Positions 18,875-57,300 of a DNA stretch of 64,000 bases are shown piece after piece. Position 1 is the first letter of the stretch. Each line of letters begins with the position of its first letter. The notes under the pieces are model-generated. The model was given only the letters and a program-made list of their open reading frames with translations. It searched no databases and was not told where the DNA came from. Source of the DNA: Malacoraja senta (Eukaryota); contig CM075994.1 in NCBI GenBank assembly GCA_038087875.1, forward strand, positions 9,798,001-9,862,000, given 5' to 3'. Both the position numbers and the translations under genes were made by a program.

Positions 18875-19365
18875 ATAGATAATAGACAACAGGAAATAGA
18901 CAATAGGAAATAAATAATAGGAAATAGACAATAGATAATAGACAATAGATAATAGACAATAGACAATGGGTGGAGGAGTAGGCCATTCGGCCCTTCGAGC
19001 CAGCACCGCCATTCAAGGTGATCATGGCTGATCATCCCCAATCAGTACCCCGTTCCTGCCTTCTCCCCATATCCCCTGACTCCGCTATCTTTAAGAGCCC
19101 TATCTAGTTCTCTCTTGAAAGTATCCAGAGAACCCGGCCTCCACCGCCCTCTGAGGCAGAAAATTTCCACAGACTCACAACTCCCTGTGTGAAAAAGTGG
19201 TTCCTCATCTCCGTTCTAAATGGCTTACTCCTTATTCTTAAACTGTGTGAGCCCTTGGTTCTGGACTCCCCCAACATCGGGAACATGTTTCCTGCCTCTA
19301 GCGTGTCCAAACCCTTAACAATCTTATATGATTCATAAGATACCCTCTCATCCTTCTAAACTCCA
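18875..19365 (-). mobile_element. CR1 3' fragment (copy at ~24435-24925)
   Basis: LEFRRMRGYLIE...SLRIRSKPFRTE; (CTATTGT)n tail. Confidence 0.85.
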
Positions 19366-19464
19366 AATAGCCCGGTTACATCCACTAGTTAGCCACGGGT
19401 GGTGCAGCGGTAGAGTTGCTGCCTCACCACGCCGGAGATCCGGGTTCGATCCCGAGTACTGCTA

Positions 19465-20445: not shown

Positions 20446-20684
20446 TCTGAAACGGTTTCCGCACTGTATCTCAAAATTGAACTAATCTGCCTTTTGACTC
20501 CAACTCTTCCACAGGTTTGTAGGTTAATTGGCTTCTGTAAATTGTCCCGTGTGTGTAGGATATTGTTGGTGTGCGGGGGATCACTGGTGGCGCGGACTCG
20601 ATGGGCCTGTTTCCACGCCCGATCTCGAAAGTCTAAAGTAAGTCTCTAAAGGTCCCTGTCACGGTTTATTTCGAACAGCTCCGA

Positions 20685-20925
20685 CACAGACACTGTGATT
20701 TACAGGACTGTTCCCAGGGACGCATTCAGAGACCGACATCGAGTGCTGCTGGAAGGGTCATCAACTCGGGGAAAGACGCTCTATGGCCTGCCCGAACGTT
20801 GTTCACCACCCAGATGTCCGTCAGGGAATGTTGCCGACTGGCCCGCTGCAGACTGCAGGAGTACGTGCTGATGGACGCACTGAAGCTCGGTGCAGCCAAC
20901 GCCAAGGCTCGATGGGGGGGGGGCA
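20685..20925 (+). mobile_element. Tx1-like (L1-group) ORF2 C-terminal fragment (copy at ~26250-26485)
   Basis: YGLFPGTHSETDIECCWK...ECCRLARCRLQEYVLMDALKLGAANAKARWG. Confidence 0.6.
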
Positions 20926-21054
20926 CAGTCTAGGGTCCTTCCGCTGCAGGACATGGGGGGCAGGGTGTGGTGGAGACACCACTCAAAAAAAGGGAAGTGG
21001 GCCACATGAGTGGCATGGGTGCGGGATAAATTAGTGCAATGTGTGTCAACAGTA

Positions 21055-21810
21055 TTAGAAACATAGAAAATAGTTGCTGGTGGAGGCCATTCGGCCCTTT
21101 GAGCCAGCACCGCCATTCATTGTGATCATGGCTGATCGTCCCCAATCAATAACCCGTGCCTGCTTTCTCCCCATATCCCTTGATTCCACTAGCCCCTAGA
21201 GCTCTATCTAACTCTCTCTTAAATCCATCCAGTGACTTGGCCTCTACTGCCCTCTGTGGCGGGGAATTCCACAATTTCACAACTCTCTGGGTGAAAACTT
21301 TTTTTCACACCTCAGTCTTAAATGGCCTCCCCTTTATTCTAAGACAGTGTGTCCCGTGGTTCTGGGCTCGCCCAACATTGGGAACATCTTTCCTGCATCT
21401 AGCCTTGTCCAGTCCTTTTATAATTGTATATGGTTCTATAAGACCCCCCCCCCCTCCTTCTAAACTCCAGTGAATACAAGCCAAGTATTTTCAATCTCTC
21501 CTCGTATGACAGTCCCGCCATCCCAGGGATAAATTTCGTGAACCTATGCTGCACTGCCTCAATCACAAGGATGTCCTTCCTCAAATGAGGAGACCAAAAC
21601 TGTACACAATACTCCAGGTGTGGTCTCACCGGAGCCCTATACAACTGCAGAAGAACCTCTTTACTCCTATACTGAAATCCTCTTGTTATGAAGGCCAACA
21701 TTCCATTAGCTTTCTTCACTGCCTGCTGTACCTGCACGCCAACTTTCAGTGACTGGTGTACAAGGACACCCAGCTCTCGCTGCACCTCCCCCTTACCTAA
21801 CCTAACCTGA
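21055..21810 (-). mobile_element. CR1 3' fragment (copy at ~26620-27370)
   Basis: VHQSLKVGVQVQQAVKKANGMLAFI...RPHLEYCVQFWSP. Confidence 0.88.
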
Positions 21811-21933
21811 CCATTGAATGTATAGCCTCCGAGAATGTAGGATGAATTATTATTTTTTGCACAGTTCCTGTGTTCTATATATAGATTACTTGAATAAAGT
21901 CTATTTTGAATTAAAGTAACACTATCTCCGCAG

Positions 21934-22053
21934 GTCTCTGTTAACAAGGGACGACACGACAGGCTGGGTGAAGAAGATTTGAACGATACCCTTGAATATC
22001 TAACTGACAACATCCAGGTCGATCGCCCCCCTGTCTCCGAATCCAACCCGTGA
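21934..22053 (+). CDS. Candidate terminal coding exon (VSVNKGRHDRLGEEDLNDTLEYLTDNIQVDRPPVSESNP*)
   Basis: tctccgcag acceptor; phase 0 matches the 15704-15769 exon; TGA at 22051-22053; AATAAA at 22127-22132. Confidence 0.55.
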   Translation, partial: VSVNKGRHDRLGEEDLNDTLEYLTDNIQVDRPPVSESNP

Positions 22054-22262
22054 ATCTCTGTCGGTGAATCCCGTATCAGCGGGAAGAATCCTTCGCCAAT
22101 TTGTCATCACTTCTTTTTGGTAAATTAATAAAAAAATGAGTTGGTGAAAATCTCTCTCATTTGGTTTGGAGGCTTGAATTTCCCAGATGTGAAACCGAGT
22201 TTTTCCCCCACCAGGAGACCAGTTAAAGCTGGGGGTATCGTGATGGTACTATGGTAGTTGAT

Positions 22263-22618
22263 GTTTATACATCGACGAGACCAAGCATAGGCTTGGCGAT
22301 CGCTTCGCCCAACACCTCCGCTCGGTTCGCATTAACCAACCTGATCTCCCGGTGGCTCATCACTTCAACTCCCCCTCCCATTCTGTATCCGACCTTTCTG
22401 TCCTGGGCCTCCTGCAACACCTCATATTTCGCTTGGGTAGTTTACACTCCAGCGGTAAGAACATGGACTTCTTCAATTTCAGGTAGTCCTTGCTTTCTCC
22501 TTCTTTCCCCTCCCCTTCCCAGCTATCCCACAGCCCACTGTCTCCGCCTCTTCCTTTCTTCTTCCCGTCGCCTCCCCCTCCACCATCAGTCTCAAGAAGC
22601 GTCTCGACCCAAAATGAC
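22263..22618 (+). mobile_element. Penelope GIY-YIG fragment with mutated hammerhead core (copy at ~27824-28179)
   Basis: Homologous to 5470-5880; ends in CAGTCTCAAGAAGCGTCTCGACCCAAAATG. Confidence 0.8.
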
Positions 22619-23205
22619 AATAGACAATAGACAATAGGTGCAGGAGTAGGCCATTCGACCCTTCGAGCCAGCACCACCATTCAATGTGATTATGGCTGAT
22701 GACCTCCAATCAGTACCCCGTTCCTGCCTTCTCCCCATATCCCCTGGTCTCCTAATCTGAGGAAAGACATTCTTGCCATAGAGGGAGTACAGAGAAGGTT
22801 CACCAGACTGATTCCTGGGATGTCAGGACTTTCATATGAAGAAAGATTGGATAGACTCGGTTTGTACTCGCTAGAATTTAGACGATTGAGGGGGGATCTT
22901 ATAGAAACGTACAAAACTCTTAAGGGGTTGGAGAGGCTAGATGCAGGAAGATTGTTCCCGATGTTGGGGAAGTCCAGAACAAGGGGTCACAGTTTAAGGA
23001 TAAGGGGGAAATCTTTTAGGACCGAGATGAGGAAAACATTTTTCACACAGAGAGTGTTGAATCTCTGGAATTCTCTGCCACAGAAGGTAGTTGAGGCCAG
23101 TTCATTGGCTATATTTAAGAGGGAGTTAGATGTGGCCCTTGTGGCTAAAGGGATCAGGGGGTATGGAGAGAAAGCAGGTACAGGATACTGAGTTGGATGA
23201 TCAGC

Positions 23206-26200
23206 CAGCTTTTTCAATGATTTTACTGAGAAATGGGAGGTTTGATATTCGTCTGTAATTGTTCAGTAGTGAAGTGTCTAAGTTCTTCTTTTTTAAGAGA
23301 GGCTTGATAACAGCAGTTTTCAGGGCATGTGGGAAGACACCTGAGAGAAGGGACGTGTTTACAATCTGTAGAAGGTCTGAGGTCATGCAGTTTGATACAC
23401 CTTTGCAAAGGCCTGTTGGTAGAATATCGAGGCAGCAGGAGGAGGATTTCAAATGTTGTATAATGCCCTCCAAGGTTTTATGGTTAATAACATTAAATTG
23501 TGTCATGGTATTTGAATTGATTATAAGTGGACACATGGACAACACATGTCCTGCACCTGATGTGGAGGCACTGACTGCTTGCCTAATTTTCTGAATTTTG
23601 TCGGTGAAGAAGGAGGCAAATTCATTACAGGCCCTTGTGGAAAGCAGTCCAGGGGCTACTGACACAGGAGGGTTTGTTAGCCTGTCGACAGTAGTAAACA
23701 AGGCCCGTGCATTATTATTGTTTTTGGCAATGATGTCAGAGAAGAAGGATTGCCTTGCATTTCTCAGTTCCAAGTTGTAGATGCGAAGTCTTTCTTTATA
23801 GATGTAAAAGTGAACCTGGAGATTTGTTTTCCGCCACCGTAACATATTTGTTAGCCCTGTGCTCAACCCCGAACCTGGAGATCGCTCTTCGTCTCGCCTC
23901 TACCCTTCGACCTGTCCGGCATGGGAGACCCTAACAGGAGACGAATCTCCCGCTGGCATAGCTGCAGGGGTCACTGAGACAGACAAGCTCCCCGACCATG
24001 ATTCAGATTCAGATTCAGATTCCACTTTATTGTCATTGTACAGTGTACAGTACAGAGACAACGAAATGCAGTTAGCATCTCCCTAGAAGAGCGACATAAA
24101 TATGAGCAATAAATAAATCTAATAAATCCTGGTGGGAGGAGTGTCCTATAGGCCAACTCATCGTTGTTGCTGATGAGGCCAATCACCATGACAAGGTTGC
24201 AATCCAACAGGGCAGCCAATCCACAAAGTGTCCTTTAAGGATGGACACAAAATACTGGAGTAACTCAGGCAGCATCTCTGGAGGGAAGGAATGAGTGATC
24301 TTTTGGATCGAGACCCCTCCTTTCGAAACACTGCTCCTTAGACCCAAGTCATACCTCCATCTCTTGTTCCACGGAGATTTGAGTCCAGCCAAGTCCACCC
24401 TTTGGCCGTTCCAGAGCAGAGGTGAAGCAGTAGAAATAGATAATAGACAACAGGAAATAGACAATAGGAAATAAATAATAGGAAATAGACAATAGATAAT
24501 AGACAATAGATAATAGACAATAGACAATGGGTGGAGGAGTAGGCCATTCGGCCCTTCGAGCCAGCACCGCCATTCAAGGTGATCATGGCTGATCATCCCC
24601 AATCAGTACCCCGTTCCTGCCTTCTCCCCATATCCCCTGACTCCGCTATCTTTAAGAGCCCTATCTAGTTCTCTCTTGAAAGTATCCAGAGAACCGGCCT
24701 CCACCGCCCTCTGAGGCAGAAAATTCCACAGACTCACAACTCCCTGTGTGAAAAAGTGGTTCCTCATCTCCGTTCTAAATGGCTTACTCCTTATTCTTAA
24801 ACTGTGTGAGCCCTTGGTTCTGGACTCCCCCAACATCGGGAACATGTTTCCTGCCTCTAGCGTGTCCAAACCCTTAACAATCTTATATGATTCAATAAGA
24901 TACCCTCTCATCCTTCTAAACTCCAAATAGCCCGGTTACATCCACTAGTTAGCCACGGGTGGTGCAGCGGTAGAGTTGCTGCCTCACCACGCCGGAGATC
25001 CGGGTTCGATCCCGAGTACTGCTATGAGAATGCAGGGTGACTTGGACAGGTTGGGGGAGTGGGCAGATGCATGGCGGATGCAGTTTAATGCGGATAAATG
25101 TGAGGTTATCCACTTTGGTAGCAAAAACAGGAAAGCAGATTACTATCTACATGGCGTCAAGTTGGGAAAAGGGGAAGTACAACGGGATCTGGGGGTCCTT
25201 GTACATCAGTCTATGAAAGTATGCATGCAGGCACAGCAGGAAGTGAAGAAAGCCAATGGCATGTTGGCCTTTATAACAAGAGGAATCGAATATAGGAGCA
25301 AAGAGGTCCTTCTGCAGTTGTACAGGGCCCTAGTGAGACCACACCTGGAGTATTGTGTGCAGTTTTGGTCCCCTAATTTGAGGATGGACATTCTTGCTAT
25401 TGAGGGAGTGCAGCGTAGGTTTACAATGTTAATTCCCGGGATGGTGGGACTGTCATATGCCGAGAGAATGGAGCAGCTGGGCTTGTACACTCTGGAGTTT
25501 AGAAGGTTGAGAGGGGATCTCATTGAAACATATAAGATTGTTAAGGGTTTGGACACGCTAGAGGCAGGAAACATGTTCCCGATGTTTGGGGCGTCCAGAA
25601 CCAGGGGCCACAGTTTAAGAATAAGGAGTAAGCCATTTAGATCTGAGACGAGGAAACACTTTTTCTCACAGAGAGTGGTGAGTCTGTGGAATTCTCTGCC
25701 TCAGAGGGCGGTGGAGGCCGGTTCTCTGGATACTTTCAAGAGAGAGCTAGATAGGGCTCTTGAAGATAGCGGTCAGGGGATATGGGAAGAAGGCAGGAAC
25801 GGGGTGCTGATTGGGGATGATCAGCCATGATCACATTGAATGGCGGTGCTGGCTCAAAGGGCCGAATGGCCTACTCCTGCGTCTGTTGTCTGTTGTCTGT
25901 TGTCTGTTGTCTGTTGTCTGTTGTCTGTTGCCTGTTGCCTGTTGCCTGTTGCCTGTTGCCTGTTGCCTGTTGCCTGTTGCCTGTTGCCTGTTGCCTGTTG
26001 CCTGTTGCCTCTGAAACGGTTTCCGCACTGTATCTCAAAATTGAACTAATCTGCCTTTTGACTCCAACTCTTCCACAGGTTTGTAGGTTAATTGGCTTCT
26101 GTAAATTGTCCCGTGTGTGTAGGATATTGTTGGTGTGCGGGGGATCACTGGTTGGCGCGGACTCGATGGGCCTGTTTCCACGCCCGATCTCGAAAGTCTA

Positions 26201-28766
26201 AAGTAAGTCTCTAAAGGTCCCTGTCACGGTTTATTTCGAACAGCTCCGACACAGACACTGTGATTTACGGACTGTTCCCAGGGACGCATTCAGAGACCGA
26301 CATCGAGTGCTGCTGGAAGGGTCATCAACTCGGGGAAAGACGCTCTATGGCCTGCCCGAACGTTGTTCACCACCCAGATGTCCGTCAGGGAATGTTGCCG
26401 ACTGGCCCGCTGCAGACTGCAGGAGTACGTGCTGATGGACGCACTGAAGCTCGGTGCAGCCAACGCCAAGGCTCGATGGGGGGGGGCACAGTCTAGGGTC
26501 CTTCCGCTGCAGGACATGGGGGGCAGGGTGTGGTGGAGACACCACTCAAAAAAAGGGAAGTGGGCCACATGAGTGGCATGGGTGCGGGATAAATTAGTGC
26601 AATGTGTGTCAACAGTATTAGAAACATAGAAAATAGTTGCTGGTGGAGGCCATTCGGCCCTTTGAGCCAGCACCGCCATTCATTGTGATCATGGCTGATC
26701 GTCCCCAATCAATAACCCGTGCCTGCTTTCTCCCCATATCCCTTGATTCCACTAGCCCCTAGAGCTCTATCTAACTCTCTCTTAAATCCATCCAGTGACT
26801 TGGCCTCTACTGCCCTCTGTGGCGGGGAATTCCACAATTTCACAACTCTCTGGGTGAAAACTTTTTTTCACACCTCAGTCTTAAATGGCCTCCCCTTTAT
26901 TCTAAGACAGTGTGTCCCGTGGTTCTGGGCTCGCCCAACATTGGGAACATCTTTCCTGCATCTAGCTTGTCCAGTCCTTTTATAATTGTATATGGTTCTA
27001 TAAGACCCCCCCCTCATCCTTCTAAACTCCAGTGAATACAAGCCAAGTATTTTCAATCTCTCCTCGTATGACAGTCCCGCCATCCCAGGGATAAATTTCG
27101 TGAACCTATGCTGCACTGCCTCAATCACAAGGATGTCCTTCCTCAAATGAGGAGACCAAAACTGTACACAATACTCCAGGTGTGGTCTCACCGGAGCCCT
27201 ATACAACTGCAGAAGAACCTCTTTACTCCTATACTGAAATCCTCTTGTTATGAAGGCCAACATTCCATTAGCTTTCTTCACTGCCTGCTGTACCTGCACG
27301 CCAACTTTCAGTGACTGGTGTACAAGGACACCCAGCTCTCGCTGCACCTCCCCCTTACCTAACCTAACCTGACCATTGAATGTATAGCCTCCGAGAATGT
27401 AGGATGAATTATTATTTTTTGCACAGTTCCTGTGTTCTATATATAGATTACTTGAATAAAGTCTATTTTGAATTAAAGTAACACTATCTCCGCAGGTCTC
27501 TGTTAACAAGGGACGACACGACAGGCTGGGTGAAGAAGATTTGAACGATACCCTTGAATATCTAACTGACAACATCCAGGTCGATCGCCCCCCTGTCTCC
27601 GAATCCAACCCGTGAATCTCTGTCGGTGAATCCCGTATCAGCGGAAGAATCCTTCGCCAATTTGTCATCACTTCTTTTTGGTAAATTAATAAAAAAATGA
27701 GTTGGTGAAAATCTCTCTCATTTGGTTTGGAGGCTTGAATTTCCCAGATGTGAAACCGAGTTTTTCCCCCACCAGGAGACCAGTTAAAGCTGGGGGTATC
27801 GTGATGGTACTATGGTAGTTGATGTTTATACATCGACGAGACCAAGCATAGGCTTGGCGATCGCTTCGCCCAACACCTCCGCTCGGTTCGCATTAACCAA
27901 CCTGATCTCCCGGTGGCTCATCACTTCAACTCCCCCTCCCATTCTGTATCCGACCTTTCTGTCCTGGGCCTCCTGCAACACCTCATATTTCGCTTGGGTA
28001 GTTTACACTCCAGCGGTAAGAACATGGACTTCTTCAATTTCAGGTAGTCCTTGCTTTCTCCTTCTTTCCCCTCCCCTTCCCAGCTATCCCACAGCCCACT
28101 GTCTCCGCCTCTTCCTTTCTTCTTCCCGTCGCCTCCCCCTCCACCATCAGTCTCAAGAAGCGTCTCGACCCAAAATGACAATAGACAATAGACAATAGGT
28201 GCAGGAGTAGGCCATTCGACCCTTCGAGCCAGCACCACCATTCAATGTGATTATGGCTGATGACCTCCAATCAGTACCCCGTTCCTGCCTTCTCCCCATA
28301 TCCCCTGGTCTCCTAATCTGAGGAAAGACATTCTTGCCATAGAGGGAGTACAGAGAAGGTTCACCAGACTGATTCCTGGGATGTCAGGACTTTCATATGA
28401 AGAAAGATTGGATAGACTCGGTTTGTACTCGCTAGAATTTAGACGATTGAGGGGGGATCTTATAGAAACGTACAAAACTCTTAAGGGGTTGGAGAGGCTA
28501 GATGCAGGAAGATTGTTCCCGATGTTGGGGAAGTCCAGAACAAGGGGTCACAGTTTAAGGATAAGGGGGAAATCTTTTAGGACCGAGATGAGGAAAACAT
28601 TTTTCACACAGAGAGTGTTGAATCTCTGGAATTCTCTGCCACAGAAGGTAGTTGAGGCCAGTTCATTGGCTATATTTAAGAGGGAGTTAGATGTGGCCCT
28701 TGTGGCTAAAGGGATCAGGGGGTATGGAGAGAAAGCAGGTACAGGATACTGAGTTGGATGATCAGC
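23206..28766. repeat. Tandem segmental duplication, unit 2
   Basis: The junction at ~23206 joins CR1 3' UTR (...GATCAGC) to L2 internal sequence (CAGCTTTTTC) through a CA microhomology. Confidence 0.97.
27496..27615 (+). CDS. Duplicate copy of the candidate terminal exon
   Basis: Same acceptor, frame, stop and downstream AATAAA as 21934-22053. Confidence 0.45.
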   Translation, partial: VSVNKGRHDRLGEEDLNDTLEYLTDNIQVDRPPVSESNP

Positions 28767-36723: not shown

Positions 36724-36880
36724 TAGGGATATTTTTTTACATTTACCAAGCCAATTTTTTACATTTACCAAGCCTTGGAGTGTGGGAGGAAACCGAAGAT
36801 TTCCGAGAATACCCACGAGATCACGGGGAGAACATGCAAACTCCGTACAGACAGCACCCGTAGTCAGGATCGAACCCGGG
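36724..36880 (-). mobile_element. tRNA-SINE fragment abutting the truncated TRIM exon
   Basis: CCGTACAGACAGCACCCGTAGTCAGGATCGAACCCGGG is the reverse complement of the SINE head/body. Confidence 0.88.
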
Positions 36881-36888
36881 ACTCGGGC

Positions 36889-37143
36889 CCGGAATGTAGA
36901 GAGGAGTTTACAGACCGCAGCCTCAGGGTGAATCGGGCCTTGGCGAGACTGGCTGAGAAAGCTCGAGCACTGAGCCCGAATCTCAAAGAGAAGGAAAGTA
37001 AACTTCACTGCGAGAAACATCAGGAAGAACTGAAGCTGTTTTGTGAAACGGACAAGAAACTGATCTGTGTGATTTGTGCAGCTGGGCGGGAACACAAGTC
37101 TCACAGCTTCATGCCGGTAGATGAAGCGATTGAATTCTACAAG
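36889..37143 (+). CDS. TRIM (A33/TRIM39-like) exon 1 remnant: end of RING and B-box2
   Basis: PECREEF...LRVNRALARL...HCEKHQEELKLFCETDKKLICVIC...EHKSHSFMP; AAG|GTAAAA donor; RING N-terminus and ATG absent. Confidence 0.9.
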
Positions 37144-37233
37144 GTAAAAGAAAATGAACTTTGATCACATCATTGTGTAATCTTTTCTTTATTATCTGAC
37201 ATACTTATTCTCTGATCTGAAACCCAACCCCAG

Positions 37234-42779: not shown

Positions 42780-43760
42780 CATCTGATTCCACCACCTCCT
42801 CTGGCAAAATATTCCAGGTATTAACAACTCTTTGTGTGAAGAAAACTGCGTCCTCCAGTATTGATATCGTTGCATGACAATAAGGTTTTGATGATCCAGC
42901 CTATATCCTGCTGCAGACTTTGACAGACTACCTTGGTATCCACAACATTACCCGTTCCCCACAAACGTAGTAGTCACACCTCCTACATTCACATCCAAGC
43001 CATGAAAACATAAAATATACCGCAAAGGTTGCAGCACCGATCCCTGCTGCACACCACCAGTCACAAACCTCCAGGCAGCAAAATCATCCTTCTACCGCTA
43101 CCTTCTACCTCCAACCACCAAGCCAATTGTAGGTCCATTTTACCAACTCGTCTTGGATTTCACCTGCCTTCGCTTTCTGGATCAGCCTTACATGCAAAAC
43201 ATTGTCAAGTCACTCAGTGAAGCTCATATATTGCTTCACAATGAGATCAGAATGTTCTTGGTTGTACCGACGCACCAATTCCACTCTCTAGTAAAGAAAG
43301 CAAGTAAACAGTAGCAGATTGCCTCGCCCGTCCAGTCCACTCCCGTTCAGTATGATCACGGCAACCCCACCCCACATCTCTACATCCTCTGTAACCACCT
43401 CTAGTTACAACTCACATCCGTCTCCTCATCTTCCAATCTGCCTCTCCCTCGCCATCTACTGACAAGATATTTAAATACTCGCCTTATTTCTCCATCTCCA
43501 CCCGCAATGTCTCGTTCATCCTCACTTTACGCATTCGTTTTCCCCCGTCCGCACGCCTCGCCCGCTCCCATTCCCGATAACCCGCGGAATTCCCCCTCTC
43601 CTGCCCGGTTGACAAACTCCCGGAAAGATGCCTGTTGTCCATTCGATGTGGTTGGGGTGACACACTGGGTAAGGTGTCAGTTGTCCGCCCGCCTGTGCCC
43701 GAGTCTCCCCCACACCGACCCCCGGGGACTGACTCTCTGATTGTCTGCCTCTCCCCCCAG

Positions 43761-44290
43761 TCTCCGTCACCCTGGATGTGGAAACAGCGCATGCGCAACT
43801 TGAGGTGTCTGAGGATCGGAAGAGGGTGAGATGGACCCGGACCCGGAGGAGTCTCCCTGACACCGGGAAGAGGTTTACATTCAGTCTGTGTGTGTTGGGA
43901 TCGGAGGGATTCACATCGGGGAGACATTACTGGGAGGTGGAGGTGGCGGAGAATCGGATCTGGAGTCTGGGAGTCGTCGCAGAGTCTGTGGATAGGAAAG
44001 GAGAGGACGACCTGACCCCGGAGACTGGTGTCTGGAGCATCTGGCGGCTGGGTGACGGGTTTGTTGCTCTCACCTCCCCTCCATCCCATCTTCCCGCCCG
44101 TCCCATCCCCGGGAGGGTGGGAGTTTATCTCAGTTACGAGTCCGGATCAGTTTCATTTTACGACGCGGACACCAAGTCCCATCTCCACACCTTCACTGGG
44201 AATAAATTCACGGAGAAACTTTATCCTTTCTTCGAGACTTGGGATGTAAACTGGCTGAGAATCTGCTCCGGTTCCGCTCCGGGTGTGTAA
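43761..44290 (+). CDS. TRIM exon 6: PRY/SPRY (B30.2) domain
   Basis: ctccccccag acceptor; VTLDVETAH...LCVLGSEGFTSGRHYWEVEV...RVGVYLSYESGSVSFYD...LYPFF; TAA at 44288-44290; AATAAA at 44437-44442. Confidence 0.95.
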
Positions 44291-45530: not shown

Positions 45531-45703
45531 TGTTGTGTATTTGGTACTTGGAATTGACTTTAAATAACACTCAGACACGGGAGTAAAACTAACAAGCTTC
45601 TTAATTCCAGATCGCCACCTTGAGTCTCTCCTGCACATGCGTACCATTGCACAAGACATCAAATATTTTAATTACATTACATACCTAACATTCCTCCCCC
45701 TTT
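45531..45703 (-). mobile_element. Putative 3' LTR (160 bp, TGTT...AACA) preceded by a polypurine tract
   Basis: Minus strand AAAGGGGGAGGAA (45703-45691) directly followed by TGTTAGG...; ends ...CACAACA at 45531. Confidence 0.65.
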
Positions 45704-45927
45704 AACTTGGAGGCAGGTAACAGCATTTCTATTACATAAACAGCACTCCTCCCCTTTTAACTCAATTTCACCTTCACGGTATATGCTCTTTACCTAACAT
45801 ATAATTGATTAATATCGGTTGCAAAATTGTATTATTACAGTCATCTTACTCATAACTGTAATAATCATATCTAAACTTAGCACATACTTTTTTCATTCCA
45901 CTCATCTTCCTTAAACAAAATACATTA

Positions 45928-47262
45928 TAGATACATAGATACATAGAAAATAGGTGCAGGAGTAGACCATTCGGCCCTTCGAGCCTGCACCACCACTCAA
46001 TATGATCATGGCTGATCATCCAACTCAGTATCCCGTACCTGCCTTCACTCCATACCCCCTGATCCCTTTAGCCACAAGGGCCACGTCTAACTCCCTCTTA
46101 AATATAGCCAATGAACTGGCCTCCACTACCCTCTGTGGCAGAGAGTTCCAGAGATTCACCACTCTCTGTGTGGAAAAGTTTTTTCTCATCTCGGTCTTAA
46201 AGGATTTCCCCCTTATCCTTAAGCTGCGACCCCTTGTCCTGGACTTCCCCAACATCGGGAACAATCTTCCTGCATCTAGCCTGTCCAACCCCATAAGAAT
46301 TTTGTACGTTTCTATAAGATCCCCTCTCAATCTCCTAAATTCTAGCGAGTATAAGCAAAGTCTATCCAGTCTTTCTTCATATGAAAGTCCTCACATTCCA
46401 GGAATCAGTCTGGTGAACTTTCTCTGCACTCCCTCTATGGCTATAATGTCCTTCCTCAGATTTGGAGACCAAAACTGTACGCAATACTCCAAGTGTAGTC
46501 TCACCAAGACCATGTACAACTGCAGTAGAACCTCCCTGCTCCTATACTCAAATCCTTTTGCTAAGAAAGCTAACATACCATTCGCTTTCTTCACTGCCTG
46601 CTGCACCTGCATGCCTACTTTCAATGACTGGTGTACCATGACACCCAGGTCTCGCTGCATCTCCCCTTTTCCTAATCGGCCACCATTTAGATAATAGTCT
46701 GCTTTCCTGTTTTTGCCACCAAAGTGGATAACCTCACATTTATCCACATTATACTGCATCTGCCAAACATTTGCCCACTCACCCAGCCTATCCAAGTCAC
46801 CTTGCAGTCTCCTAGCATCCTCCTCACAGCTAACACTGCCCCCCAGCTTAGTGTCATCCGCAAACTTGGAGATGTTGCCTTCAATTCCCTCATCCAGGTC
46901 ATTAATATAAATTGTAAATAGCTGGGGTCCCAGCACTGAGCCTTGCGGTACCCCACTAGTCACTGCCTGCCATTGTGAAAATGACCCGTTTACTTCTACT
47001 CTTTGCTTCCTGTTAGCCAGCCAGTTCTCTATCCACATCAATACTGAACCCGCAATACCGTGTGCTTTAAGTTTGTATACTAATCTCTTATGTGGGACCT
47101 TCTCGAAAGCCTTCTGAAAGTCCAGATACAACACATCCTCTGGTTCTCCCCTATCCACTCTACTAGTTACATCCTCAAAAAATTCTATAAGATTCGTCAG
47201 ACATGATTTACCTTTCGTAAATCCATGCTGACTTTGTCCAATGATGTCACCACTTTCCAATG
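45928..47262 (-). mobile_element. CR1 (family B) RT and 3' fragment
   Basis: ORFs 46391-47272 and 46025-46330; 8-mer tail. Confidence 0.92.
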
Positions 47263-47610
47263 ATGGCACCATTATCCCTTGCTTTATGTGTTATCCTTTT
47301 CCGTTCCCTTATGTGTAAATTGCGCACTCTTTCGAATCGCCCTATCTCTGCCTGTATCTCTGCCTCTTCCCATTTTTAAATGTCCTAATCTAATTTTGCA
47401 GATTTTTTCCTGTTCCTGTTCATTATTTGTAGGTGGCAGCTGACACATGGCTGCAGGTTTTCGTTTTGCTAGCGGCTTGCTTTGTCGCTCAATTTCCTCG
47501 CGCTGCGTATTTTTCTGCTCTTGCTGTTTAATGAGATTCTGCAATGCATAACCATTTGTCCATTGCTCATTGAAGGAGGCTCAATACTGGACTGTAGTGA
47601 ATTGTCCTAG

Positions 47611-48220
47611 TCACAATCGGTGCTGCATACTTTTGTCTCGACCGACAAGCCTCTCTTCTTTAGACACTTCTATTAGCAGCTTTTTACTCATTATCACACA
47701 TTTATTTAACCGTTCTTTGTATCGTTTAAGCCTTTTCTGTTGTTCATCTATTTGTCTTCTTAAGTCACATTTCTGGTTCTTCATCAAGAAGTAGGATCTA
47801 TATTGTCTTTGCAATACAAGAGTGGCTTTGATTTGTGCTCTGTATAGTTTTCTTGCTTCATAAGCACGGTAGTGAGACTGCACTACAATTCCTGTATAAT
47901 TCAGTTTGAGGAAGTCTTTCCTATATCTTTTAAGCCTTTTGTATACTTTAAGCCTTTTCTGTTGTGCATCTATTTGTCTTCTTAAGTCTTTCCTATACCA
48001 ACTCATACGGAGTACTGACTGTACTTTTATAGTAGCCCCCTTTTGCTTAATCCACTGCCTAACCACCATACCCTTGTAGGCAGCGTGAATGGTAATGGTT
48101 GCATACCCATTGACTGATATTGCACAAACTGGGAATGCCCTATTTTGCATGCTTTGTACCATCTCTGGATCGAAATGACTGCTTGTCGCATAGCTCTATA
48201 GCGTACCCTTGATCGTTTAT
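47611..48220 (-). pseudogene. ASPM-derived IQ array, distal part (frameshifted), followed by a basic coiled-coil tail
   Basis: [10 protein letters not shown] (another frame, ~48150-48185), [33 protein letters not shown]; internal ~40-bp duplication encoding DLRRQIDxQQKRLK. Confidence 0.75.
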
Positions 48221-49508
48221 ATTATTATTATTATTATTTTTTTTTAAAATAATATTTTTATTAGAAGCAGGTACATATCATGTTGAAAACCTTTCATGTA
48301 TTTCATTTCTACATTCCTAATATTATCAAACGTTATTCGTGTTGCCTCCAATAGTTTTTTTTTATATAGATAGAAAATAAGAAAATAGCAGAAAAAGAAA
48401 AAAAAGGGATAATAAAGAAGAATGAACTTACTAAAAGTACATCATTTGAGATATATTCGTACATTTTAAAGTATAACTTTTCATCTAATCCTTGGCTCGA
48501 GTTTTAGTCAGGTTCTCGTGTCGAACCAGTCTGACCCTTCAAGTAGTCAATAAATGGAGACCATGTTCTGATAACTAATTCTTGTTTGTCCATTAGGACA
48601 AGTCTAATTCTTTCCAAATGTAAGGTCTCTGACATTTCTATAATCCACATTTTACTTGTGGGGGTTATAGGAACTTTCCAAAATTTTCATATTAATTTTT
48701 TTCCAGTTATTATACTACAATCAATAAAGTTTCTTTGAGTTGTTGTAAATGTTTGATTTTGTTCTAATATTCCAAGTATTATTAATTTTAAATCAGGATC
48801 CAATTGAATGTTGACAACTACAGATATTATTCTGAAAATATCTGCCCAAAATGTTTTAATTTTTATACAATTCGCAAATGTACGAGTTAGATTAGCATCT
48901 AAATGTTGACATTTATCACAAATAGGGGAGATGTGTGGGAAGATTCTATTTAGTTTTGTTTTAGAATAATGTAATCTGTGTAGTACTTTGAATTGTATTA
49001 GAGTGTATCTGGCATTTAATGAACATTGATGTATATGTTGTAAACTTTCTTCCCAAGTATCTTTCGTTATTGTTTGGTTTAGTTCCTTTTCCCATGTTTG
49101 CCTATATAAATCCGTCGATGGTATCTCACTATCTAATAAGGTGTTATATATATGAGATATTAATTTTTCTCTATTAGGGTGTTTATTCAAACAGTCATCA
49201 ATGATTTCTGGATCTCTAGTTCTAAAGTTTTGAGTGTTTGCTTTGACATAATCTCTAAGTTGTAGATATCTGAAAAAATCATTTAAGTGGAGTCCATAAG
49301 TCTGTTGTAGCTCCTGAAATGAAAGAAAGGTGCCTTTCTTATAAAGTTGTCCCATCATTTTAATTCCATAATTTTTCCATTGTATGAAACCTTTATCTAA
49401 CCTAGAAGGTTTAAATAAAGGGTTATTCACAATGGGAAGAAAGAGTGATAAATTATCCAATTTTAAGGTCTTTTTTAATTGTTTCCAAATTCGCATACCA
49501 CTGTATAT

Positions 49509-50547
49509 AGCAATGTTACAAAATTTTGAGATTTAAAAAATAAAGTCTGCAATTTATCCCATCAGATAAAGCATAAAAAAAAGTTTAATTTGACACTTAA
49601 TTCACTTTCATATCTTCAGTATTAAAAAAGTTATGGCCATTATCATACTCAGAAATTAGCATCTAGTTCCCTATTGCTTTTCCATTGACTTAACACAAAA
49701 GCTGTGATCGAGGACAGTTAAAAGCCCATAACTTTCTTAAAAATTATGATAACTGAAAGAAATTTTCAGTTATTATAGATTGAAGCATTCTGAAACAAAT
49801 ATGAAACAATCTTACTTCGAAGACATGAAAGTAAAGCATATAATTAGTTTGTTACCTAATTGTAGCTAATTACAAAATTCAATTACTAGATCTAAACATC
49901 TATCAATTTCTTAAGAATAGATTAACATTTTTAAATAGCCTAAGTGTCCAAATAACATTCACACAATAATTCACAATATAACATAATTTTTAAATCTAAT
50001 TTTCATGAATTTACAGGCCAAATGGAAGGAATTGAATGTTTAATACCTGTAAATTAATGGGCATTTAATTCATCTTGTGAGTGAGGTTTTCTGGAACGCG
50101 ATCTTTTGGAACGTTGATTTGCGGTGAATTTAACCCCGTATTGGTATGAAAAATACTGCCGTTAATTCGGGGAATAAAATCACCGTGTCGCATGAAAAAA
50201 TGTGAATTAAAGGCTTCTTAAGAAGCACTTTTATACATTTAAAGAAAGCACTTTCGTTTACCTGTCCCATGCGTGAAATCCGTCCCCGTTATCGGCGTTG
50301 ACGCTTCAGGAGCTGATTTTAAAATTATTGTAGCGCTGACATTGACGATTTAATAAAAATAAAAAATTCACTCATCGCCACTAGGAACGATTCATCAGCC
50401 AACGCTTGTACTCCAACACAATATTAACTAGGACAAGGGAGGAGAAACCCGCGTTTTAACCCCGCCCCCCCTTAAAGGCGCCAAAATCGCGCACACGGCC
50501 AGTGGCAGAATTACAGCGCGACTGAAGGTAAGTTTTGTAACATACCT
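49509..50547. mobile_element. Non-autonomous TIR DNA transposon with 9-bp TSD
   Basis: TSD ACTGTATAT at 49500-49508 and 50548-50556; TIRs AGCAATGTTACAAAA / TTTTGTAACATACCT; removal restores L1 NPIIYSGMRIW. Confidence 0.88.
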
Positions 50548-50960
50548 ACTGTATATTATAGGATTTTCCCTGTAAATTTTGTTATTCAATTTTGAGGTAG
50601 CAAACAGTAACGAACCAATTTCAAAGGGTAAACAGTCTTCCTTTTCCATTTTTAACCAATCCGGTTGCTGATCTATTTCTTCCAACCAAAAGTCCATATT
50701 TTTATTGTTAACTGCCCAAAAATAAAACAAAAAATTTGGTAAAACTAAACCTCCATTTATTTTTGATTTGCACAGATGTTTTTTGCTTATCCTATGATTC
50801 TTATAATCCCAGATAAAATCAGTGATAATGGAATCCAACTTATTCAAGACGTTTTTTGGCAAATATATCGGAATTGTTTGAAAAAAGTATAATATTTGCG
50901 GTAAAAAAATCATTTTTATTGCATTAATTTTACCAAACATTGAAATAGGAAGTGTTTTCA

Positions 50961-51540
50961 GACCTAATCTGAGGAAAGACATTCTTGCCATAGAGGGAGT
51001 ACAGAGAAGGTTTACCAGACTGATTCCTGGGATGGCAGGACTTTCATATGAGGAAAGACTGGATAGACTCGGCTTGTACACGTTGGAATTCAGAAGACTG
51101 AGGGGGGATCTTATAGAAACTTACAAAATTCTTAAGGGTTGGACAGGCTAGATGCAGGAAGATTATTCCCGATGTTGGGGATGTCCAGAACTAGGGGTCA
51201 CAGTTTAAGGATAAGAGGGAAGACTTTTAGGACCGAGATGAGGAAATCATTTTTTACACAGAATTCTCTGCCACAAAAGGTAGTTGAGGCCAGTTCATTG
51301 GCTATATTTTTTACACAGAATTCTCTGCCACAGAAGGTAGTTGAGGCCAGTTCATTGGCTATATTTAAGAGGGTTAGATGTGGCCCTTGTGGCTAAAGGG
51401 ATCAGGGGGTATGGAGAGAAGGCAGGGATGGGATACTGAGTTGGATGATCAGCCATGATCATATCAAATGGCGGTGCAGGCTCGAAGGGCCGAATGGCCT
51501 ACTCCTGCACCTATTTTCTATGTTTCTAAGTTTCTATGTT
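50961..51540 (+). mobile_element. CR1 3' fragment nested in L1
   Basis: PNLRKDILAIEGVQRRF...; TTTCTATG tail; flanking TGTTTTC repeat; internal ~57-bp tandem duplication. Confidence 0.9.
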
Positions 51541-51895
51541 TTCCAGTATTGAATATTCTTATGTAGTTTATTCAGTAAAGGGGGAAAATTTTATTTAAAT
51601 AATAATGCATATGTCTTAGTGACATAAATTCCTAGATATTTAAATATTTCATTAACTATTTTAAACGGGAATTGTTGTAATATATGTGTATTATGTTCCG
51701 TTATTGGCATAATTTCACTTTTATTCCAAATGATTCTGTATCCGGAGAGTAAACCAAATTGAGTTATTACATTTAATAAATTTGGAATACTAATTTCTGG
51801 TTTTGTGATGTAAATTAATGCTTCATCTGCGTATAAAGAAATTGTATTCACTGTGTCTTTAGTATTATACCCGTATATTTCTGGGTGGGTCCTAG

Positions 51896-52513
51896 AAGGC
51901 CTGTCTCACGAGTCTGCGGTCATTGGCGGCGAAACAGGAAGAATCTACCGCTCCTGGGCCGCCATAGACCGTGCACTCGGTCAAACGCACAATTCCGGGG
52001 CCGTGCGGCGTTGTTCCCAACACCGCACGGTGCTAAAATAAAACCAACACTGTTCAAAAATATTTTCCTACTGCACAGCCGCCGCCAGTGAGGCACGAGT
52101 GCAGCACGGCCGCCGCCACAGCCGCCGCCAGTGTGGCACAAGCGCCGTGCGTCGAACTTGCACCGCCACAGCCTCTGCCAGTGAGGCACGTGTGCGGCAC
52201 GGCCGCCGCCACAGCCGCCGCTAGTGAGTCACGTGTGCGGAACGGCCGCCGCCACAGCCACCGCCACAGCGCCGCGATCAGCACGGCCGCCGCCACAGCC
52301 CCGCAGATCCAAAATGACGTCATCGCAGTCGGCCCGCCCTTTTTTTTTACTTACCGCAAGCTCGTGGGACCAGCCGCACTTAAATCACTCGGCCCCCGCG
52401 CAGCATCCGTGCGGCGCTCCCGTGGCATAGGCTCGGCGCTCTCGCCGTTGCCGTGCGGTCCCCTCTACAGGCGAATCCGCGCTTCACCGCCGATGACCGC
52501 AACACCGTGAGAC
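51896..52513. mobile_element. GC-rich non-autonomous DNA transposon (possibly PIF/Harbinger-like) nested in L1
   Basis: Inverted ends GTCTCACG...CGTGAGAC; internal GCCGCC repeats; interrupts L1 RT. Confidence 0.55.
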
Positions 52514-53106
52514 TTTCAGCAAGTGGCTCAATAGCGAGTGCAAATAATAACGGAGATAGCGGGCATCCTTGTCTACAACCTCTAGATAAATTCAATTTAG
52601 ATGATAACATTTGATTTGTTAATATTCTAACTGTTGGTTTAGTATATAAAGGTTTTACCCATGTACAGAACTTCTCACCCAATTGCAATTTTTCCATCAC
52701 CGAAAATAAATAGGGCCATTCAACCTGATCAAATGCTTTCTCAGCATCTATTGAGATTATTGCTTGGTCTTCGTTAGTGATTCTCTTTGAATATATTATA
52801 TTAAATAAGCGTCTCAAATTATAGTATGAATACCGTTTCTAAATAAAGCCTGTTTGGTCAGGGTGTATTAATTTATTCATCACTGTACTTAATCTGTGTG
52901 CTAGGAGTTTAGTTAATATTTTCTGATCTGTATTTAAAAGAGCAATTGCTCTGTATGATCCTGGATCTTCGGGATCCTTATCCGCCTTTGGTATAAGTGT
53001 TATTATAGATTCGTTTAAAGTTTCTGGCAATTTCTGTTGAATATAAGTGTACTCATACAGTGTTTGTAAACGTGGGGAGACAAAATCGTAATTTTTTTAA
53101 TAAAAT

Positions 53107-54150
53107 TCAGAACCTAAAGAAGTAGAAGGCCTGAATACAAACCACTGCTTTTCTCAAACTATTATAATGTCGCACTTGGACATCTCTTATCTGGCAAGCT
53201 CTGTATCGTTGCTGTACTGCAATGGCAGACCAGCTTAGTTTCTTGAAATACTGACGCAGTTTATGCATCTGATAATAAGTCTGTATGACTTTGGCAGAAT
53301 GCAATTGCTTTCGAACACCCATTCCTCGGTAGGCAGCCTGAAGCAGCACAACACTGCTGCGTACCTTCATGTAAGTCTTGCGATCACTTTCCATTTGAAG
53401 ATGTGCCCTATAATGGGTTTGTACTATTATAGCTGCCAATCTCATTGCCCTGTATGGACGGTATACTCTGTGCATTCTAAATGCTGCTTGTTTTACCGTT
53501 GCTGCCTTCTGTTTGTTCCGGATCTCTCTCCGTACCTTCATACCCCTGAATGCAGCTTGAATAGTTATGGTTGCCCTCTGGATGACAATTTCTCTTTGCA
53601 CTTGACTTTTGTCCACTTGACTTCTGTCCCTTTGCACTTGACCTTCGTCCACTTGACTTTTGTCCACTTGCCTTTTGTCCCTATGCCCTTGACCTTTTTC
53701 CACTTGACTTTTGTCCCTTTGCACTTGACTTTTGTCCACTTGGCCTTTATCTACTTGACTTTTGTCACTTTGCACTGGACTTTTGTCCACTTGGCCTTTA
53801 TCCACATGACTTTTGTCACTTTGCACTTGACTTTTGTCCTTTGAGGGACTCTCTGCCCTCTTTAGTTCAGGCTCCTTGCCTCTGGATGCCCTTGGAGGTT
53901 TTGGCGAGAAATGAGCCATTAATGCCTCCTTACACTCCTCGTACGTTTTATCCGTGGGCTTTGCTGGCCGCAGCAACGTACGTAAGGTGTGATAACCCTC
54001 TATTCCTGAGCCTAATATGAACCATGCTCTCTTCTTCTCCTCCGCAGTGATATCATTGGAAATGAAAGAAGCCCCCAAGACTTCAGTCCATTTCACAAAA
54101 ATACACCCAGAATCTAGCTGGGGCAACTTTCCTACAATTTGAAAAGCCAT
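53107..54150 (-). CDS. Chimeric ORF: Gypsy-type Gag N-terminus, SQVDK-repeat linker, ASPM-type IQ motifs (347 aa; truncated by L1)
   Basis: ATG start. NDITAEEKKRAW...YHTLRTLLRPAKPTDKTYEE...LMAHFSPKP is Gag-like. Seven IQ-like motifs are spaced 23, 23, 27, 19, 23, 27 aa. Confidence 0.8.
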   Translation of the reverse strand: MAFQIVGKLPQLDSGCIFVKWTEVLGASFISNDITAEEKKRAWFILGSGIEGYHTLRTLLRPAKPTDKTYEECKEALMAHFSPKPPRASRGKEPELKRAESPSKDKSQVQSDKSHVDKGQVDKSPVQSDKSQVDKGQVDKSQVQRDKSQVEKGQGHRDKRQVDKSQVDEGQVQRDRSQVDKSQVQREIVIQRATITIQAAFRGMKVRREIRNKQKAATVKQAAFRMHRVYRPYRAMRLAAIIVQTHYRAHLQMESDRKTYMKVRSSVVLLQAAYRGMGVRKQLHSAKVIQTYYQMHKLRQYFKKLSWSAIAVQQRYRACQIRDVQVRHYNSLRKAVVCIQAFYFFRF

Positions 54151-54319
54151 GTTACCCTGTTGCTATTCAGGTGCACTATATTCTGTTCTCTCACTGTTTT
54201 CTGCCCTGGACGTAATACATTTACATTCTAAGAAATTATCCAGCCCACTGACAATTACTAATTCTTATAATAGATTTATACGAATAAACCAACATTTCAT
54301 GTTAATAGCCAACTAGAAC

Positions 54320-57300
54320 ATTTTTTAAAATGTTTATTTTATTAGAAGCAATTGTACAAGAATAAAGCAATCGGCATAACAATTATACAATTTTCGTAGC
54401 TTCATTTTTTTTGTTTTTTGAAAATATTTTTTATTGGAGATAAGTACACAACCTATTTACATCATTACAGTCTTACATTTTTAAATTGATAATATTGTCA
54501 ATTATTATTACATTGTCTCCAATACCTTTTGCCTTTTTTTTTGTTTAAACTAAATAGAACTAAAGAGATAGATGAAGTAAAGAAAGAAAAGAAAGAGAAG
54601 AAAAACAAAAAAAAACAACAACAACAAAAAAAAAAAAAAAAAAAACAAAAAACAAAACAAAAAACAAAAAAAAAAAAAAAAGGAAAAAGATAGTTAAAGA
54701 AGAATGGAAAAATTTATTAAAATAAAAAACTTCATTCGAGATATATTCGTACATTTCTAAGTATAGCATTTCATCCATTCTTTAGCCCGAGTGCTAGTCA
54801 GGTTCCTGTGCTGAACTGTTCTGACCCTTTAAGTAATCAATAAAAGGAGACCATGTTCCAACGAATAATTCCTGTTTGTCCAACAGGGAGAATCTGATTC
54901 TTTCCACGTTTAAGGTCTCCGTCATTTCTGTAATCCACATTTTGATTGTGGGGGTCGTAGGGCCTTTCCAAAATTTTAGAATTAATTTTTTTCCTGTTAT
55001 TAAACTATAATCAATAAAGTTTCTTTGTGTTGTTCTAAATGTTTGATTTAATTCTAATATTCCGAGTATTATTAATTTTGGATCTGGGTCCAATTGTGTG
55101 CTGGTTACTTTAGATATTATACTGAAAATATTTACCCAGAATTTTTTAATTTTTATACAGTTTGCAAACATATGAGATAAAGTAGCTTCTAAATGTTGAC
55201 ATTTATCACATATAGGTGAGATATGTTGAAAGATTTTATGTAGTTTTGTTTTTGAATAATGTAACCTATGTATTACTTTAAATTGTATTAGAGAATGTCT
55301 GGCGTTTAATGAACATTGATGTATGTGTTGCAAACTTTCTTCCCAAGTATCTTTCGTTATTATTTGATTTAATTCTTTTTCCCGTGTTTGTCTGTGTAAG
55401 TCCGCCGATGGAATGTCACTGTCTAATAAGATATTATATATATAAGATATTAATTTTTCTGTATTAGGATGTTTGTTCCAACATTCATCAAGAATTTCTG
55501 AATTTCTAATTCGAAAATTTTGAGTATTCGATTTTACATACTATCTTTAAGTTGAAGATATCTGAAATAATCATTTCCTCGAAGTCCATAAGTCTGTTGC
55601 AACTCCTGAAATGTCAGAAAAGTGCCTTCCTTGTAAAGTTGTCCCATATTTTTAATTCCATAATTCTTCCATTGTGTAAAGCCCCCATTAAACCATGAAG
55701 GCTTAAACAAAGGGTTATTCACAATTGGAAGAAAAAGTGATAAATTATCTAATTTTAATGTATTTTTTAATTGTTTCCAAATTCGTATAGCACTAAATAT
55801 TATAGGGTTTTCCCTATAAAATTTTTTGTTTAATTTAGACGTAGCAAATAATATCGAACCGATATCAAAAGGTAAACAATCTTCCTTTTCCATTTTTAAC
55901 CAGTCTGGTTGATGATCTATTTCTTCCAACCAGAAATTCATATTTTTAATATTAACTGCCCAGAAATAAAACAAAAAGTTGGGAAAAACCAAGCCTCCAT
56001 TTATTTTTGATTTACACAAATGTCTTTTGTTTATCCTATGATTCTTATAATCCCAGATAAAATCATTAACAATAGAGTCCAGTTTAAAAAAAAAGTTTTT
56101 TGCCAGATATATCGGAATTGTCTGAAAAAGGTATAATATTTGCGGTAAAAAAATCATTTTTATGGCATTAATTTTGCCAACCATTGAGATAGGAAGTGTT
56201 TTCCAGTATTGAATATTCTTATGTAGTTTATTCAGTAATGGTGGAAAATTTGCTTTAAATAATGATGTATATATCTTAGTTACATAAATACCTAGATATT
56301 TAAATTTTTCCTTTACTATTTTAAATGGAAATTGTTGTATTATCTGTTTGTTATGTTCCCTTATTGGCATAATTTCACTTTTATTCCAATTTATTCTGTA
56401 TCCTGAAAGTGAACCAAATTGGGTTATTAGCTTTAATAAGTTTGGAATACTAATTTCTGGTTTTGTAATGTAAATTAATACATCATCTGCGTATAGAGAA
56501 ATTTTATTCACCGTGTCCTTTGTGTTATACCCGTGTATTTCCGGATGCCCCCTGACTCTTTCTGCAAGTGGCTCAATAGCAAGCGCAAATAATAATGGAG
56601 ATAACGGTCATCCTTGTCTACAACCTCTAGATAGGCTAAATTTAGATGACAACCTTTGGTTTGTAAATATTCTAGCCGTGGGATTTGTATATAACAGTTT
56701 TATCCATGTACAGAATTTCTCCCCTAGCTGCATATTTTCCATCACCGAAAATAAATAAGACCATTCGACCTGATCAAATGCTTTTTCAGGGTCAAGTGAG
56801 ATTATTGCTAGATCTTCATTAATAATTCTCTTGGAATATATAATATTAAATAATCTTCTTAGATTATAATATGAGTACCGTTTCTGAATAAAGCCTGTTT
56901 GGTCAGGGTGTATTAATTTATTCATCACTGTACTTAATCTATGCGCTAGTATTTTAGTTAATATTTTCTGATCTGTATTTAAAAGTGCAATTGCTCTATA
57001 TGATCCCGGGTCTTCCGGATCTTTATCAGCTTTAGGAATACGTGTTATTATAGATTCATTTAAAGTGTCTGGAAGTTTCTGTTGAGTATAGATATACTCA
57101 TACAGTCTTTGTAAACGTGGGCAAAGCAAATCATAAATGTTTTTATAAAATTCGGAGCCTAAACCATCTGGTCCTACTGCTTTACCATTTTTTAAAGAGC
57201 CAATAGACTCCTCAATATCTTTTATCGTAATCTCCCTTTCTAATAATTCTCTATCGTTTGAATCTAAACCTTTTAAATTACATTTTAGTAAAAAATCTGC

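Follow-up and report, generated by a model that had tools for sequence, protein, structure and literature searches.

Organization of the chimeric frame at the Malacoraja senta locus

The stretch analyzed here, 64,000 nucleotides (nt) of the skate Malacoraja senta (GCA_038087875.1, contig CM075994.1, forward-strand positions 9,798,001 to 9,862,000) and referred to as the window, harbors a copy of what is almost certainly a nonautonomous Ty3/Gypsy long terminal repeat (LTR) family, in which a lobe of the capsid protein Gag, the IQ repeats of ASPM, and a coiled coil of TLK2 are fused in frame. The substitutions shared among its copies indicate that the open frame was selected in the master copies which multiplied, and we place at roughly one in two the probability that this was because the fusion protein itself helped the element to multiply.

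The window contains an ATG-initiated open reading frame (ORF) of 347 codons (53107 to 54150, minus strand), whose seven IQ-like motifs (Pfam IQ, E=2.2e-12) start at amino acids (aa) 197, 220, 243, 270, 289, 312, and 339 and show the spacing of 23/23/27/19/23/27 aa reported in an earlier note on this DNA; the spacing of 19 is due to a 12-nt deletion of the window's subfamily, other copies having 23. This ORF terminates within L1 sequence (FFRF, then a stop), and the length of 347 aa is, therefore, a truncation. The earlier note had the IQ array resume beyond the L1 insertion, and a second part with the one frameshift that it described is present, although the resumption is not exact, as 144 nt of the ASPM part (reference positions 481 to 624) were lost at the insertion site. 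The coiled-coil tail which it assigned to the captured array also exists but belongs to TLK2 rather than to ASPM, and the element continues past the proposed limits of 47611 to 54150 as far as its 3′ LTR (Table 1). A piece of the TLK2 start is duplicated at about 47926 to 47988, corresponding to a 72-nt insertion in 26 of 60 copies, and the TLK2 piece of the window copy contains two stops, an in-frame deletion, and a frameshift. The copy is broken, as had been stated; L1-type and (presumably) CR1-type insertions interrupt it, and only its 3′ LTR is kept; neither a primer site nor a 5′ LTR was found in the window further 5′ of position 54342, where L1 sequence occupies that place.

Table 1. Parts of the chimeric element and of the insertions within it, in window coordinates
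Feature	Position	Strand	Basis
5′ leader remnant of the element	54151-54342	minus	Alignment (blastn) with full copies L046/L043 stops at 54342/54324
N-terminal part of Gag with a single capsid-like lobe (aa 1-85), to HFSPKP, where gag-pol relatives go on	53896-54150	minus	Homologs, gag-pol relatives, model
Linker: short Gag-derived stretch and an expansion of DKSQVQR-like 21-nt units derived from the initial codons of ASPM	53590-53895	minus	TRF, series of copies
Proximal part of the ASPM-derived IQ array, 7 motifs	53122-53589	minus	Pfam, named homologs, alignment to copies
L1-type non-LTR insertion with nested fragments	48216-53121	minus	RVT_1 match 52380-52838; poly(A) tail near 48240
Distal part of the ASPM-derived IQ array, one frameshift	47772-48215	minus	Comparison to other copies
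TLK2-derived coiled-coil region without introns (skate TLK2 aa 194-373)	47295-47769	minus	tblastn E=2e-61; host exons
Non-LTR insertion, presumably CR1 type, in the 3′ untranslated part	45928-47269	minus	RVT_1 match 46391-47290; alignment gap versus full copies
3′ untranslated part, with polypurine tract at its end (45691-45705)	45691-45927	minus	Alignment to full copies
3′ LTR, TG...CA	45531-45690	minus	82-86% identical to LTRs of full copies

The family has the structure of an LTR retrotransposon

In the 1.94 Gb of genome searched, the element measures approximately 4.3 kb (full copies, ~3.3 to 4.7 kb without nested insertions) and possesses LTRs, a primer site, and a polypurine tract, the last lying directly beside the 3′ LTR in full copies. 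Two LTR matches (157 to 178 bp, TG...CA) were found in 34 copies, with a median Kimura two-parameter divergence of 0.032 within pairs (range, 0.6 to 12.9%; 30 pairs with at least 100 aligned bases). A perfect 5-bp target duplication, different in every case, flanks the TG..CA ends in 19 of these 34 copies; the remainder comprise one with a 4-bp duplication, 12 with none, and two with off-end matches which were not counted. The primer site matches tRNA-Ser(GCT)+CCA of this genome over at least 13 nt in 28 of 37 cases, nine of them over all 18 nt. No pol match was obtained inside the chimeric copies, and Rfam gave no match in three copies. An origin as a DIRS element, Helitron, or L1 retrocopy was rejected on the basis of the LTRs, primer site, and target duplications. 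The earlier proposal of a nonautonomous LTR element without pol is borne out by these observations; it did not extend to the detailed LTR structure, to TLK2 as a second captured gene, to the gag-pol relative, or to the evolutionary series described below.

Two further kinds of derivative were seen. L077 and L083 are mini derivatives (1.6 to 1.8 kb) that lack ASPM and TLK2, with an LTR following almost immediately upon the Gag lobe, and in L034 (5800 to 5945), L038, L042, and L043 the polypurine tract and first LTR bases are repeated two or three times ahead of the 3′ LTR.

Origin of the Gag, ASPM, and TLK2 parts

A HMMER search with aa 1 to 91 returned 470 homologs at E<=0.001. Twenty of these were scanned, picked by length or rank and with the long ones being Gag-Pol polyproteins; 17 had Pfam matches, all to Gag, protease, reverse transcriptase, RNase H, or integrase, and three had none. 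Four related gag-pol elements (L073 to L076) share the Gag start and continue into the rest of Gag, to which L076, now decayed, adds protease, reverse transcriptase, RNase H, and integrase in that order. These relatives, which we take to be Mag-like, resemble the chimeric element in their Gag start, LTR (75 to 82%), tRNA-Ser primer site, 3′ region, and 5-bp target duplication, whereas the chimeric element has host sequence in place of the second capsid lobe, later of the zinc knuckles, and of all of pol. The oldest (stage-1) chimeric copy is 85 to 86% identical to them at the nucleotide level over the Gag start and 88 to 90% over the zinc-knuckle part. Pfam gave no direct match for aa 1 to 91, and neither did a PDB profile search. 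The lobe is predicted to form three helices (pLDDT, 83), for which Foldseek returned no row at E<=0.001 and weak rows (E>=0.72) that were all capsid domains, while the top ESM Atlas match, DUF7041 (0.95), and its Retrotrans_gag rows (0.89 to 0.90) serve as a lead only. Judged by its homologs, on which the identification rests, the N terminus is that of a Gag protein, in agreement with the earlier note. An unnamed 622-aa protein, P0173, combines such a Gag N terminus with C2 domains and is possibly another Gag-host fusion.

ASPM is a spindle protein that works together with calmodulin. Named homologs of the IQ array are mostly ASPM, that of the whale shark having the highest identity (60%) and being colinear. 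Contigs from two presumed-RNA runs of other organisms are ~90 to 94% identical to the oldest copy across the ASPM part and diverge into unlike sequence at both of its junctions, as expected of a host ASPM transcript. The ASPM origin previously suggested agrees with these results, as does the absence of ASH and CH domains, since Pfam finds only IQ in a region bounded by Gag and TLK2; on the same grounds, an ASPM gene or paralog was rejected as an explanation of the locus. The element thus has the 23/23/27 array of host ASPM and lacks its ASH, CH, and C-terminal domains. The composition of the captured part is 20% K+R and 3% D+E. Four queries (the ASH family, two whale-shark pieces, and a short pattern) did not find host ASPM in the genome, in which TLK2 and a TLK1-like gene (contig C6180) were found; the assembly possibly lacks the ASPM locus, and the failed queries are not evidence of its absence.

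A 101-aa piece of the tail shares 83% identity with skate and shark TLK2 and matches PDB 5o0y (E=2.5e-45). The captured region, present in 49 of 60 loci, corresponds to TLK2 aa 194 to 373, presumably begins inside the first coil, and lacks the N terminus and kinase domain of the host protein. The host TLK2 gene lies on contig C10, where its cleanly aligned exons are 88 to 100% identical to skate TLK2. Five of its exons match the captured piece at 89 to 100% nucleotide identity, and the four intervening introns (~1.1 to 3.3 kb) are absent, which indicates that the piece came from spliced mRNA; individual copies are 87 to 97% identical to host TLK2. The coiled coils of TLK2 are described as mediating dimerization, chiefly through CC1 (PMC6023931).

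Read by eye, with no chance control and with the ASPM side taken from other organisms' contigs, the switch points share ~7 nt (Gag/ASPM), 4 nt (ASPM/TLK2), and ~5 nt (TLK2/3′ region). Such short shared sequence at each junction is as described for LTR-mediated retroposition in PMC5131818.

Amplification and a preserved evolutionary series

The Gag part gave at least 150 matches in the best 150 scored of 560 candidates and the IQ part at least 140 in the best 139 scored of 442, while a pattern spanning the ASPM-TLK2 junction gave 223 matches versus 29 for a control pattern. We estimate 150 to 190 copies in the genome, some of which carry the junction twice and some of which, on small contigs, are possibly haplotypes; the amplified family with shared junctions that the earlier note envisaged is, thus, real. 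The ASPM-TLK2 junction is doubled in ~17 listed copies (e.g., C1:116446060, C2:6973850, and C274), the two being 114 to 246 nt apart and the distance, by eye, mostly a multiple of three.

An older junction, between the knuckles and ASPM, occurs at only eight places, compared to ~190 ASPM-TLK2 junction matches above control; seven of these were read as Gag lobe, knuckles, and ASPM, the eighth being L108. The copies preserve a series which runs from the gag-pol relative to capsid lobe, zinc knuckles, ASPM, and TLK2 in one frame, then to loss of the knuckles, and then to lengthening of the linker in 21-nt steps, in-frame linker lengths being mostly 102+21n nt within a range of 102 to 564 nt. A FastTree tree of the ASPM and TLK2 parts of 55 copies, rooted on host TLK2, takes the form of a ladder, with the knuckle-bearing copies followed by a short-linker copy, the window's subfamily, and two large groups. 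Divergence from host TLK2 climbs from 2.9% to 12.9% along this ladder, and terminal branches account for 1.48 of the total tree length of 1.71.

Selection on the fused reading frame

From 72 element stretches, a repeat retrieval, a duplicate, and the four gag-pol relatives were removed and copies covering >40% of each part were kept, leaving 61 for Gag, 60 for ASPM, and 55 for TLK2, with real sequences as references. Non-CpG substitutions were scored as shared when present in five or more copies, and the expectation for stops was derived from the substitutions' own mutation spectrum. The 187 shared substitutions comprise 130 nonsynonymous and 57 synonymous changes and no stop, against 12.9 stops expected (0 of 5,000 simulations), while the 949 private ones comprise 683 nonsynonymous changes, 203 synonymous changes, and 63 stops, against 64.5 expected, with an omega-like ratio of 1.07. 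Single copies decay neutrally, and the changes that they share are stop free. Two apparent shared stops proved to be two-hit codons and disappeared when codon context was considered. Twenty loci had been picked for long frames, and the stop deficit persists without them (P, 3e-5 to 9e-5).

Insertions and deletions follow the frame as well: the shared ones in the Gag and ASPM parts measure 3, 3, and 72 nt, compared to 31 of 124 private ones in frame, and the frame is preserved at the three fusion junctions, across both Gag deletions, and through the shared insertions. Two subfamilies compensate for frameshifts in the TLK2 tail (-30 in 17 of 55 copies and -24 in 5 of 55). Constraint on the amino acid sequence is weak, the shared omega-like ratio being 0.78 overall (P=0.016), 0.76 for ASPM, and 0.61 for TLK2. 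In post hoc comparisons, three shared changes fell in IQ cores, against 9.4 expected (P=0.012), and the net charge shift of shared changes was +7 versus -2 (P=0.021). Several copies retain 380 to 480 open codons.

Occurrence in other species and expression

In Leucoraja erinacea, protein XP_055489032.1 (P0080), the sole longer homolog among those returned, is 80% identical to aa 1 to 91 and has an expanded linker; RefSeq models it as a 290-aa protein named "ASPM homolog isoform X1," and it is a copy of the element, the name being a likely misannotation. DNA-like runs of four other organisms contain 27 to 32% of the sampled words from the element, and in the one such run which was aligned, the knuckle-deletion joint was seen. 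None of the runs listed as containing element sequence is recorded as RNA. In a poly(A) run of another organism, 192 of 7.3 million reads fell on part of the stage-1 copy, with 8, 6, and 38 reads at element-specific ends and a strand bias in the TLK2 part that fits sense RNA; this signal is low level and comes from one study, without matched DNA or a silent control.

Fate of the window copy and its surroundings

The same L1 junction is found in 12 of the 21 loci with a readable motif and is absent from two close relatives, and L050 and the window copy have a common flank beyond the LTR. It follows that the window's subfamily grew by block duplication rather than by transposition; the window copy is dead and was duplicated passively in a local block. 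In only 2 of 19 close copies of its subfamily does the frame run uninterrupted from its start to the L1, and the survival of the 347-aa frame is likely due to chance.

Adjoining the element are B-box and PRY-SPRY exons of a TRIM-like gene (36727 to 37164 and 43733 to 44290, plus strand), and the duplicated block on this contig may be a TRIM cluster. Elsewhere in the window, a nested-repeat block of ~5.6 kb with near-identical ORFs occurs twice in tandem at about 17386 to 28752, representing a recent duplication or an assembly artifact, and an SGNH/GDSL esterase-type ORF, a domain type found in ORF1 of CR1/L2 elements, lies at 11426 to 12406 (minus strand).

Possible roles of the fusion protein

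From the structure of the family and the literature, we infer that template switching inside helper particles would have captured pieces of host mRNA and that an autonomous helper would mobilize the element in trans. The fusion protein may act in cis as a packaging adaptor which brings the element's RNA into helper-made particles, the capsid lobe serving for coassembly with helper Gag, the very basic IQ array replacing the lost zinc knuckles (possibly under calmodulin regulation), and the TLK2 coil providing self-association. Such a contribution to multiplication would explain why master copies kept the frame open, and it is this reading which we hold at about even odds. A bolder version would have Gag rebuilt from host mitotic proteins into a working parasite protein of lobe, calmodulin-binding ASPM array, and TLK2 dimerization coil. 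In the skate germ line, this protein would package the element and tether particles to the spindle, or else to TLK/ASF1 on replicating chromatin, as an evolutionary counterpart of gag-onc fusions that has persisted for tens of millions of years; we regard this as unlikely.

Several observations weigh against a function of the protein. Without the 20 long-frame loci the nonsynonymous/synonymous effect is not significant (P, 0.14 to 0.15), and over six settings of threshold and CpG handling its P value ranges from 0.008 to 0.12; the TLK2 estimate may, moreover, be affected by host-lineage synonymous changes that inflate the synonymous count. With CpG sites included the stop deficit itself is weaker (P, 0.008 to 0.11; ~0.01 at thresholds of 5 and 10 copies and 0.11 at 3) because CGA>TGA recurs. 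The Gag lobe appears unconstrained (32 nonsynonymous and 9 synonymous changes; omega-like ratio, 1.27), and the post hoc effects on IQ cores and charge fade at a three-copy threshold (P, 0.08 and 0.07). In the majority of later copies, the TLK2 piece is frameshifted or partly deleted in its 3′ half, and a stop lying 14 codons short of the end is common to one subfamily (19 of 36 covered). An uninterrupted frame from the Gag start into TLK2 was found in none of the 61 copies. This lack of an intact copy and the weak amino acid constraint also stand against the earlier note's suggestion that the protein could engage calmodulin or the spindle, for example, for chromatin access or transmission bias. 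Finally, all four gag-pol relatives are decayed, and no intact helper was seen among them.

That the frame alone mattered is a possible, though less favored, explanation: the captured pieces would be stuffer, translation to near the 3′ LTR would spare the RNA from nonsense-mediated decay, and the protein would be inert. Long 3′ untranslated regions are described as triggering decay of intronless RNAs (PMC5031192), and this model accommodates a stop deficit far stronger than the amino acid constraint, the ratio in the Gag lobe, the arbitrary length of the linker, and the tolerance of shifted tail frames which are still open. The overall ratio of 0.78, the IQ-core deficit, and the retention of charge are not predicted by it. 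An accidental capture whose frame was never selected is the least credible alternative and is already largely refuted; accidental capture of multiple genes by LTR elements is documented (PMC5131818), but chance fails to account for the missing stops among shared changes or for junctions, Gag deletions, and insertions that are all in frame. These same in-frame junctions and stop deficit are left unexplained by a scenario, improbable in our view, in which sequence of essential germ line mRNAs (ASPM and TLK2) drove amplification by making silencing through PIWI-interacting RNAs (piRNAs) costly. Such camouflage has been suggested for plant elements carrying captured genes (PMC13317346), is in keeping with two donors that are both cell division genes and with the 87 to 97% identity of the copies to host TLK2, and could be combined with either model of the frame. 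The chance that the host has domesticated one or a few copies, for example, as a restriction factor with a truncated capsid or as a dominant-negative regulator of TLK/ASPM, appears slim. The RefSeq model in L. erinacea, the element-specific poly(A) reads from one run, and the long open frames of several copies would fit such use, whereas the frames were partly chosen for their length, terminal branches dominate the tree, private changes are neutral, and a frame open into TLK2, as might be expected of a domesticated Gag-derived gene, is found in none of 61 copies.

Relationship to known systems and implications

The maize LTR element Bs1 exists at low copy number, and E26 is reportedly an acutely transforming retrovirus in which a truncated Gag continues in frame into parts of two regulatory genes of the host, with pol lost and a helper needed. 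The skate element is unlike E26 (named as gag-myb-ets in a reference title in PMC2193544) in that it has no env, belongs to Ty3/Gypsy, was amplified in the germ line, and experienced selection on an evolutionary timescale rather than through tumor growth. As described in PMC13317346, Bs1 likewise joins several host gene segments in one chimeric, translated ORF of an LTR element, although in a plant and from different donors, the skate element being a vertebrate one with two cell division donors. The animal LTR-mediated retrocopies described by Tan et al. in 2016 (PMC5131818), mostly young and polymorphic, share with it the replacement of internal ORFs between two LTRs by partial spliced mRNA, short similarity at switch points, chimerism of two parental genes, and further rounds of nonautonomous retroposition; they differ from the skate family in its 150+ copies, its presence in more than one skate, its preserved series, and the selection on its frame. 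The capture mechanism is, thus, already known from LTR retroposition and Bs1, and this family is a variant of that kind. No amplified, frame-selected vertebrate triple fusion was found in the literature searched (ASPM, TLK2, retrotransposon, and skate), subscription journals and repeat libraries being outside its scope.

Skate annotation is polluted by these copies, as the RefSeq "ASPM homolog" illustrates, and they can confound read mapping and assembly of ASPM and TLK2. While gene capture by animal LTR elements has so far been observed mostly as young and rare events, in the present family the capture of two genes, their fusion in frame, the loss of domains, and amplification can be read as a series. 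The private decay of its copies provides a built-in neutral control for the question of why a parasite keeps host coding sequence, and protein function, RNA surveillance, and piRNA camouflage thereby become directly testable as answers.

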